A stretch of DNA of 64,000 nucleotides from Escherichia coli. Its GTDB lineage: Bacteria; Pseudomonadota; Gammaproteobacteria; Enterobacterales; Enterobacteriaceae. Each line of letters opens with the position of its first letter. Within the stretch, counting starts at the first letter, position 1. The DNA lies in NCBI RefSeq assembly GCF_003334385.1, contig NZ_QOWN01000004.1; one strand, written 5' to 3'. Shown piece after piece: positions 50,666-51,513 of the stretch. A program made the position numbers and the translations under genes. The notes under the pieces are model-generated. The model was not told where the DNA came from. It ran no database searches and worked only from the letters and a program-made list of their open reading frames with translations.

Positions 50666-50983
50666 ATGTCCTGGATTATCTTAGTTATTGCTGGTCTGCT
50701 GGAAGTGGTATGGGCCGTTGGCCTGAAATATACCCACGGCTTTAGTCGTTTGACGCCGAGTGTTATTACTGTGACGGCGATGATTGTCAGTATGGCGCTA
50801 CTTGCCTGGGCGATGAAATCGTTACCAGTAGGGACGGCTTATGCCGTGTGGACGGGTATTGGCGCAGTCGGCGCGGCCATAACCGGCATTGTGCTGCTCG
50901 GTGAGTCCGCTAACCCGATGCGCCTGGCGAGTCTGGCGTTAATCGTATTGGGGATTATTGGTCTGAAACTCAGCACTCACTAA
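50666..50983 (+). CDS. gdx: SMR-family guanidinium exporter Gdx (SugE), 105 aa
   Basis: ORF 50516..50983 trimmed to internal ATG ([22 protein letters not shown]...). Confidence 0.92.
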
Positions 50984-51513
50984 CTACCAGGCTGCTGTAC
51001 CCAAATAAATTTACTGACATCAAACCCTTCCCGGGTCGCGACTGCCAGCATCTCCTGTTTCACTTCGTCAGAAATGGTTGGCGTGCGGGAGAGTATCCAC
51101 AGGTAGTCGCGGTCCGGGCCGCAAACCAGCGCATGGCGGTATTCCCGATCGAGTGCAATAACGTTATAACCGCCATAGAAAGGACCAAAGAATGACACTT
51201 TCAGCGCAGCGCGAGTTGGTGCGCCGGTAAAGTACGCTTTCCCTTCACTCTGCTGCCACATTCCTCTGTCAGGGTTATAGCCTTTATTAATGACATTCAG
51301 GCCGCCGTCATCACGCAGGCTGTATGTTGCGGTGACTTTTTCCAGTCCACGTTCAAAGCGGTGATCAAAACGGGCAATCTCATACCAGGTACCGAGATAA
51401 CGTTTGGCGTCGAAATTATTTACTACGGTCACGCCACGCGGCGGCGTAGGAGAACTGCAGGCAACGACCAGAAATGCAGCTGTCGCTGCGGCAACGAGAG
51501 GGAGCAGGCGCAT
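50980..51513 (-). CDS. blc: Outer-membrane lipocalin Blc, 177 aa
   Basis: Full-length ORF with lipoprotein signal (LVVACSS); stop codon overlaps gdx stop. Confidence 0.93.

Follow-up and report, generated by a model that had tools for sequence, protein, structure and literature searches.

The four-nucleotide tail-to-tail overlap of gdx and blc in Escherichia coli and its conservation among enterobacteria

Background

Convergent genes can share nucleotides at their 3′ ends, and the number of such overlaps jumps at a length of 4 nt because of four 4-nt sequences (CTAA, TTAA, CTAG, and TTAG), the YTAR class, which let two genes on opposite strands terminate together (Lillo & Krakauer 2007, PMC2174442). 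Counts of convergent overlaps in E. coli stand at 58 in that study and at 75 in another (Huvet & Stumpf 2014, PMC4161906). In a convergent overlap, a Rho-independent terminator must sit inside the coding sequence of the partner gene, and a terminator of this kind was predicted there for ~20% of the E. coli genes that overlap convergently (PMC2174442).

Transcript 3′ ends have been mapped by Term-seq in E. coli MG1655 under three conditions, and gdx (also named sugE) was found to be held off by a guanidine-II riboswitch together with Rho-dependent premature termination, with a premature Rho-dependent 3′ end 76 nt from the transcription start site (TSS) and downstream of the riboswitch (Adams et al. 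2021, PMC7815308).

Here, we examine the junction at which gdx runs tail to tail into its neighbor blc, as it occurs in a 64,000-nt stretch of E. coli DNA (hereafter the window, whose positions are used throughout). The overlap of the two genes is already known, in that it is annotated in K-12 and belongs to a class described since at least 2007, while our literature search found no work on the gdx/blc overlap itself, the matches being blaCMY-2 gene contexts and ampC amplicons. We consider it very likely that the junction is a real, long-annotated 4-nt tail-to-tail overlap of two unrelated genes, held in place by a stop codon trap at the end of Gdx and with diffuse 3′ ends limited by Rho.

Results

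Positions 50970-50989 of the + strand read tcagcactca ctaactacca, in which the 3′ codons of gdx, AGC ACT CAC TAA, occupy 50972-50983 and the stop codon TAA occupies 50981-50983. The blc stop codon TAG lies on the − strand at 50980-50982 (CTA in + strand letters) and closes a 177-aa open reading frame (ORF) at 50980..51513. Two bases, 50981-50982, are common to both stop codons. The coding sequences of gdx (50666..50983, +; a 105-aa guanidinium exporter of the SMR family, identified by its ORF, RefSeq annotation, and PDB relatives) and blc (50980..51513, −; a 177-aa outer-membrane lipocalin lipoprotein, identified by its ORF, RefSeq annotation, and PDB identity) share the tetramer CTAA at 50980..50983, as seen in the sequence, the ORFs, and the RefSeq annotation, and position 50980 doubles as the third base of CAC, the final gdx codon (His105). 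An in-frame TGA (50977..50979, −) immediately follows the blc TAG, giving a tandem stop TAG-TGA; this TGA is the complement of the TCA that spans gdx codons 104 and 105.

A preliminary description of this DNA, made from the sequence, had placed the gdx TAA at 50981..50983 and the blc TAG at 50980..50982 with shared nucleotides, and these coordinates are exact by sequence, ORFs, and RefSeq annotation, with the genes and frames confirmed as it gave them. Its further statement that there is no intergenic space for a terminator is borne out between the genes, where the coding sequences overlap by 4 nt and no terminator can fit, but does not extend to the partner's coding region, inside which termination signals are possible. 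With zero spacer, any 3′ UTR on the gdx or blc mRNA is bound to be complementary to the partner's coding sequence, so that the mutually antisense 3′ UTRs it had proposed follow as a matter of geometry.

The window is part of an E. coli K-12-type chromosome, and the 1.4 kb around the junction is 100% identical to strain ER1709 and found in all 5,426 complete E. coli genomes. The same geometry appears in the RefSeq annotation of an identical K-12 genome (sugE 1867..2184, +; blc 2181..2714, −), and the local gene order is epmB, efp, ecnA, ecnB, gdx (sugE), blc, ampC, and frdDCBA. As side observations, upstream of ~42.9 kb the coordinates of ER1709 and of the window diverge by 2-3 nt, which indicates a few small indels between the assemblies, and lysS (in the place of lysU) and cadC are annotated in ER1709 as pseudogenes with frameshifts.

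PDB matches, RefSeq annotation, and orthologues in 43 other species mark gdx and blc as genuine protein-coding genes. Translated blc matches the PDB chains of E. coli Blc (1QWD, 6UBO, and others) without a difference to the last residue (...WVQQPGS177), and residues 1-103 of the 105-aa Gdx align with the guanidinium exporter Gdx-Clo (6WK5), likewise of 105 aa, with EmrE as a further PDB relative. In the orthologues of the 43 other species, the gdx and blc frames are open and conserved to these stops. A misassigned reading frame for either gene, which the preliminary description had named as the finding that would overturn it, was checked for both genes, and the frames hold by RefSeq, the Blc structures, the length of Gdx-Clo, and the 43-species orthologues.

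To survey the junction across species, Blc-encoding loci were taken from one genome per species and both stop codons were located in each. A gdx gene convergent to an adjoining blc was present at 44 chromosomal loci, including those of Escherichia, Citrobacter, Enterobacter, Klebsiella, Raoultella, Kosakonia, Cedecea, Pluralibacter, Yokenella, Trabulsiella, Atlantibacter, Phytobacter, Superficieibacter, Pseudescherichia, Pseudocitrobacter, a Salmonella subspecies, and Serratia grimesii, and 41 of the 44 had the same 4-nt overlap. The three exceptions were Salmonella enterica subsp. diarizonae with a 16-nt gap, Raoultella ornithinolytica with a gap of 0, for which a 4-nt insertion seems responsible, and Serratia grimesii with a 7-nt overlap (TCAATGA). 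The overlap was also kept in Citrobacter-derived ISEcp1-blaCMY-2-blc-sugE plasmid modules, and more distant Blc homologues had no gdx within 2.5 kb.

Among the 43 loci with complete genes, the gdx-strand tetramer was TTAA in 22, CTAA in 14, TTAG in 2, and CTAG in 2, with none in the remaining 3. Gdx was 105 aa long in all 43 species and ended in ...GLKLS[T/A]H, with P replacing H in 3, and its last codon was CAT (23), CAC (17), or CCT (3), the third base being always a pyrimidine. Blc, at 176 or 177 aa, was conserved to approximately ...LIWVxQ and then ended in 2-4 variable residues, giving 20 distinct tails. No premature stop codon was observed in the 46 codons of these 20 tails where ~2 would be expected, a crude count, made on tails that lack independence, that is not significant. 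Which stop codon blc has depends on the last Gdx codon, CAC giving TAG (the E. coli case) and CAT giving TAA, and the wobble base of the last Blc codon depends on the gdx stop. In Enterobacter/Kosakonia-type loci, spanning many genera, His is the last residue of both proteins, and the sequence CATTAATG, often CCCATTAATGGG, makes the junction a perfect palindrome; this palindrome, not seen in E. coli, probably arises from two CAT-TAA ends facing each other.

Four-fold synonymous sites at the 3′ end of gdx had no excess constraint across the 43 species (H3 ~1.45 vs a gene mean of 1.39). Separately, mild dips in synonymous variability occurred in blc at codons 116-140 and 146-165 (window ~51016-51165), with H3 of ~0.9-1.1 vs a mean of 1.38 on 4-9 usable columns per window in the 43 species; these may be no more than noise, or may mark a weak signal embedded in one or the other strand.

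The preliminary description had proposed 3′-end mapping of both transcripts as a check. This mapping has already been carried out, and the published Term-seq data list no discrete gdx or blc end past the stops (PMC7815308). MG1655 coordinates were converted to window coordinates by subtracting 4,326,209, an offset taken from the flanking sequences printed in PMC7815308. On this scale, the ecnB terminator 3′ end (MG1655 4376735/6) falls at ~50527 and a Rho-dependent 3′ end (MG1655 4376876) falls at 50667 (+), at the gdx start codon, while the frdD terminator 3′ end lies at MG1655 ~4378960 (Adams et al. 2021, PMC7815308). Past the preceding end at 4376876 or 4376735, the curated lists for LB at OD 0.4 and OD 2.0 contain no 3′ end before ~4378960, neither gdx nor blc is named at any 3′ end past either stop in any of the three conditions, and blc appears nowhere in those supplementary tables of that study that were searched in full (PMC7815308). 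Neither gene is mentioned in the SMRT-Cappable-seq supplementary files examined. The missing Term-seq peaks fit weak expression together with diffuse, processed Rho-dependent ends, and very low expression would by itself have the same outcome.

A "Rho termination region" has been published at MG1655 4377088, window position 50879 on the + strand (PMC7815308, Supplementary file 2), with a Rho score of 8.4 and a p value of 4e-73 (Adams et al. 2021). Reads in the 800 nt upstream and downstream of this point numbered 565 and 67 in untreated cells and 750 and 745 with bicyclomycin, although windows of 800 nt cannot separate Rho action past the gdx stop from premature termination at the gdx start codon and are too wide to fix the exact + strand Rho site (PMC7815308). 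As gdx makes up only ~105 nt of the 800-nt window downstream of 50879, + strand transcription runs through antisense blc when Rho is inhibited, which shows that nothing Rho-independent stops it efficiently there. On the − strand, no Rho region is listed within 4376600-4377199 (PMC7815308), perhaps for no other reason than that blc is little expressed during exponential growth.

The untranslated RNA after each stop has the base composition expected of Rho loading sites. The first 80 nt of + strand RNA past the gdx stop (50984..51063), antisense to blc codons ~150-177, have a C content of 0.35, a G content of 0.16, and a C/G ratio of 2.15, at about the 99th percentile of the window's 80-nt windows, and are a plausible Rho loading site by composition. 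On the − strand, the RNA from +81 to +320 past the blc stop (50660..50899), antisense to gdx, has C/G ratios of 1.4-1.8, up to about the 95th percentile, and may plausibly serve as a Rho loading region for blc read-through. For comparison, the median background C/G ratio in the window is 1.0 and the 95th percentile 1.71, and the C-rich, G-poor untranslated RNA typical of Rho terminators is found after the stop on both strands.

The junction itself carries no hairpin or intrinsic terminator. A consensus terminator scan of the + strand found no terminator-like site before 51314-51331, i.e., within ~330 nt of the gdx stop, and the − strand had none in the ~980 nt below the blc stop. The + strand site, at 51314..51341 inside antisense blc, is a weak hairpin with a 5-bp stem and an 8-nt loop (51314-51331), beginning 331 nt past the gdx stop and followed by the T-run GTGACTTTTT. 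In all, the scanned region held 5 terminator-like sites vs 2.5 ± 1.5 in shuffled sequence, and 151-nt RNAs spanning the junction folded no better than shuffles (z = −0.56 on the + strand and −1.52 on the − strand).

Upstream, the gdx leader carries the known guanidine-II (mini-ykkC) riboswitch with its two ACGR-loop hairpins at 50602..50648 (+; Rfam RF01068, 50.4 bits vs a gathering score of 32, E 3e-8). A promoter-like site found by scan at 50556..50583 (+; TTGAAA-16-CAAAAT with an extended −10 TG) fits a gdx TSS near 50591, with 76 nt from there to the 3′ end at 50667.

Several further signals flank the pair and are reported here as observations in their own right. The ecnB intrinsic terminator lies at 50496-50533 (+), with a 12-bp stem and a T-run, and corresponds to the published Term-seq end at 4376735/6, which is far stronger at OD 2.0 than at OD 0.4 (145410 vs 3796; PMC7815308). 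Between ampC and blc, GGTCCGAATTTTCGGACC followed by TTTTCTCC (51576-51594, −) resembles an ampC terminator by eye; the site was not listed by the consensus terminator scan. Just downstream of it, CTACACTT (51541-51547, −) resembles, also by eye, an RpoS-type −10 element for blc. The blc gene is reportedly a stationary-phase, RpoS-dependent gene. An Rfam "Trp_leader" match at 52752-52841 (−; 21.7 bits) is below the gathering score and consists of a GC-rich hairpin and U-run after frdD, coinciding with a strong Term-seq 3′ end at MG1655 ~4378960-4378962. This element is the frd terminator, doubling as the ampC attenuator, and not a trp leader.

The window holds seven convergent pairs, two of which overlap and four of which have coding ends no more than 28 nt apart. 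Beside gdx/blc with its 4-nt overlap, these are pmrR/pmrB (25-nt overlap), fxsA/yjeH (15-nt gap), yjeO/mscM (28-nt gap), ghoT/lysU (118-nt gap), melB/yjdF (138-nt gap), and yjeI/yjeJ (202-nt gap). The annotated coding sequences of pmrR (29 aa, 5906-5995, +) and pmrB (5971-7071, −) overlap at 5971-5995. The coding ends lie at 42931/42947 for fxsA/yjeH and at 59809/59838 for yjeO/mscM, gaps too short for two terminators, which makes these two pairs candidates for shared or Rho-dependent termination.

Discussion

The 4-nt overlap of gdx and blc is the expected end state of a convergent ORF and no annotation accident. Any gene that ends in a pyrimidine followed by TAA or TAG carries TAR on the opposite strand, and a 4-nt overlap of coding sequences results if a convergent ORF stops there. 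The end of Gdx is the fixed element, its last codon ending in a pyrimidine and followed by TAA or TAG, so that the complement of Y-TA-R always offers a stop in the blc frame with a 4-nt overlap. The functional body of Blc ends at about ...LIWVxQ and leaves a free tail, with the ORF running on until it meets the stop embedded in the gdx end. Put in terms of the loci surveyed, the conserved gdx end (CAY or CCT, then TAR) gives the other strand a TAR, into which the variable tail of Blc extends. Once in place, both stops survive only pyrimidine-for-pyrimidine changes at tetramer position 1 and purine-for-purine changes at position 4, and the variation across species comprises exactly the changes that keep both stops. 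The overlap would then be mutationally trapped and last through purifying selection on the Gdx C-terminus. The origin and the pattern of persistence can be read from the aligned loci, and the cause of that persistence is our interpretation, resting on a neutral-trap argument that is qualitative. Selection for the overlap itself is not required by the data, since three lineages escaped it with both genes retained and gdx has no excess of synonymous constraint.

The transcripts, in turn, would leave each stop as C-rich, G-poor untranslated RNA on which Rho terminates diffusely inside the partner gene, with the ends trimmed thereafter, a view taken from published bicyclomycin data for the gdx strand and from base composition for the blc strand. 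The 3′ UTRs antisense to the partner gene are thus probably diffuse and Rho-terminated, and their mutual complementarity probably matters little for gdx and blc, since gdx stays off unless guanidine is present and neither gene is more than weakly expressed in standard media.

These readings were weighed against others, both of how the junction arose and of how its transcripts end. That one frame or stop codon is wrong and there is no true overlap has practically no chance of being correct and was rejected; nothing was found in its favor, and the Blc crystal structures that contain the sequence to residue 177, the equal lengths of Gdx and its solved homologue Gdx-Clo, the conservation of both frames to their stops in 43 other species, and RefSeq all speak against it. 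Another reading holds that the overlap is kept because convergent read-through lets gdx and blc regulate each other, for instance with guanidine-induced gdx transcription lowering blc, or ampC-blc read-through lowering gdx, by polymerase collision or by RNase III cleavage of the mRNA duplex. It could draw on the zero spacer, retained by 41 of 44 species from many genera and intact on blaCMY-2 plasmids, on + strand transcription that crosses antisense blc once Rho is inhibited, and on the different signals to which the genes respond (the guanidine riboswitch for gdx and, reportedly, RpoS for blc). We nevertheless think it very unlikely, because the conserved Gdx terminus and the embedded complementary stop fully account for the retention of the overlap, while the three lineages that separated or re-phased the genes (gap of +16, gap of 0, and 7-nt overlap) kept both, synonymous sites near the junction have no excess constraint, Rho holds antisense-blc transcription low in untreated cells (67 vs 565 reads), and the literature search found nothing linking gdx and blc expression. 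Its more specific form, in which the junction is selected in Enterobacteriaceae, and carried whole on blaCMY-2 plasmids, because guanidine-induced gdx transcription escapes Rho, runs antisense through blc towards ampC, and lowers the expression of both by polymerase collision or duplex cleavage, we likewise regard as very unlikely; if true, such antisense coupling would tie the output of envelope lipocalin and beta-lactamase to guanidine stress.

As to how the mRNAs end, each could stop at a cryptic hairpin and U-tract inside the partner's coding sequence, as the scanned hairpin at 51314-51331 (+) followed by GTGACTTTTT and the prediction of such sites for ~20% of convergently overlapping E. 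coli genes (PMC2174442) might suggest. This is very doubtful, given that the + strand site is weak, that the count of sites is no greater than shuffled sequence gives, that the ~980 nt below the blc stop hold no − strand candidate, that no Term-seq 3′ end is reported at 51331-51341, and that the near-equal downstream and upstream reads with bicyclomycin (745 vs 750) argue against an efficient Rho-independent stop. Convergence with zero spacer would also suit an overlapping bidirectional terminator, in which a junction hairpin pauses polymerase and head-on and trailing collisions release it, and such sites reportedly govern hundreds of genes in E. coli (Ju et al. 2019, according to the bioRxiv preprint 10.1101/2022.10.23.513370). 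That model, by the same preprint, needs a hairpin in the overlap region and uniform 3′ ends, whereas the gdx/blc junction is without significant structure, terminator-like sites, or called Term-seq 3′ ends, its + strand read-through is strongly Rho-dependent, and collisions should be rare between two weakly expressed genes, all of which makes it very improbable here. Diffuse, Rho-limited ends past a trapped pair of stop codons remain the reading that we prefer.

The overlap matters little in itself, being part of the standard E. coli K-12 annotation and a member of the commonest class of convergent overlaps, and what is added here, its family-wide conservation and an explanation through the Gdx C-terminal anchor, is a small addition and no surprise. 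It does have practical corollaries: a deletion or edit of gdx or blc must keep the stop codon of the partner, and whether blc stops at TAG or TAA is settled by which of the synonymous codons, CAC or CAT, ends Gdx. The pair can further serve as a clean worked example of how a conserved C-terminus followed by TAA or TAG freezes a 4-nt overlap over long evolution, and as an example of a convergent pair whose 3′ ends probably rely on Rho and not on a terminator hairpin.

Compared with the systems described so far, gdx/blc shares with overlapping bidirectional terminators (Ju et al. 2019; Wang et al. 2022, preprint) its convergent orientation and overlapping 3′ ends. Those sites have a hairpin and sharp paired 3′ ends and are Rho-independent, whereas gdx/blc has no hairpin and no called ends and its + strand read-through is sensitive to Rho; of the features expected for a collision-type site, the hairpin, the uniform paired 3′ ends (which low expression could hide), and Rho independence are thus all missing. 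In Rho-dependent termination of RNA that is untranslated or antisense (Peters et al. 2012; Adams et al. 2021), C-rich, G-poor RNA likewise follows the stop and read-through is bicyclomycin-sensitive with no discrete 3′ end, the evidence at gdx/blc being direct for the + (gdx) strand only and there at 800-nt resolution. Within the window, pmrR/pmrB is also convergent, with overlapping coding sequences and without intergenic terminator space, but its overlap consists of 25 nt of real coding sequence on both strands and reaches beyond the stop codons.

The closest match is the YTAR class itself. The gdx and blc genes are convergent and both genuine, their stops share the central TA, and their tetramer, CTAA, is among the four that define the class. 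The geometry is the same, and so is the origin presumed for it, namely that after loss or displacement of its stop codon an ORF lengthens as far as a stop embedded in the complementary strand. Here too the terminator has to lie inside the partner gene or be Rho-dependent. Particular to gdx/blc are the very conserved Gdx C-terminus that acts as an anchor and the persistence of the overlap on plasmids and in many genera of enterobacteria; a TGA also follows in frame after the blc TAG in E. coli, and nothing essential sets the pair apart from the YTAR class.
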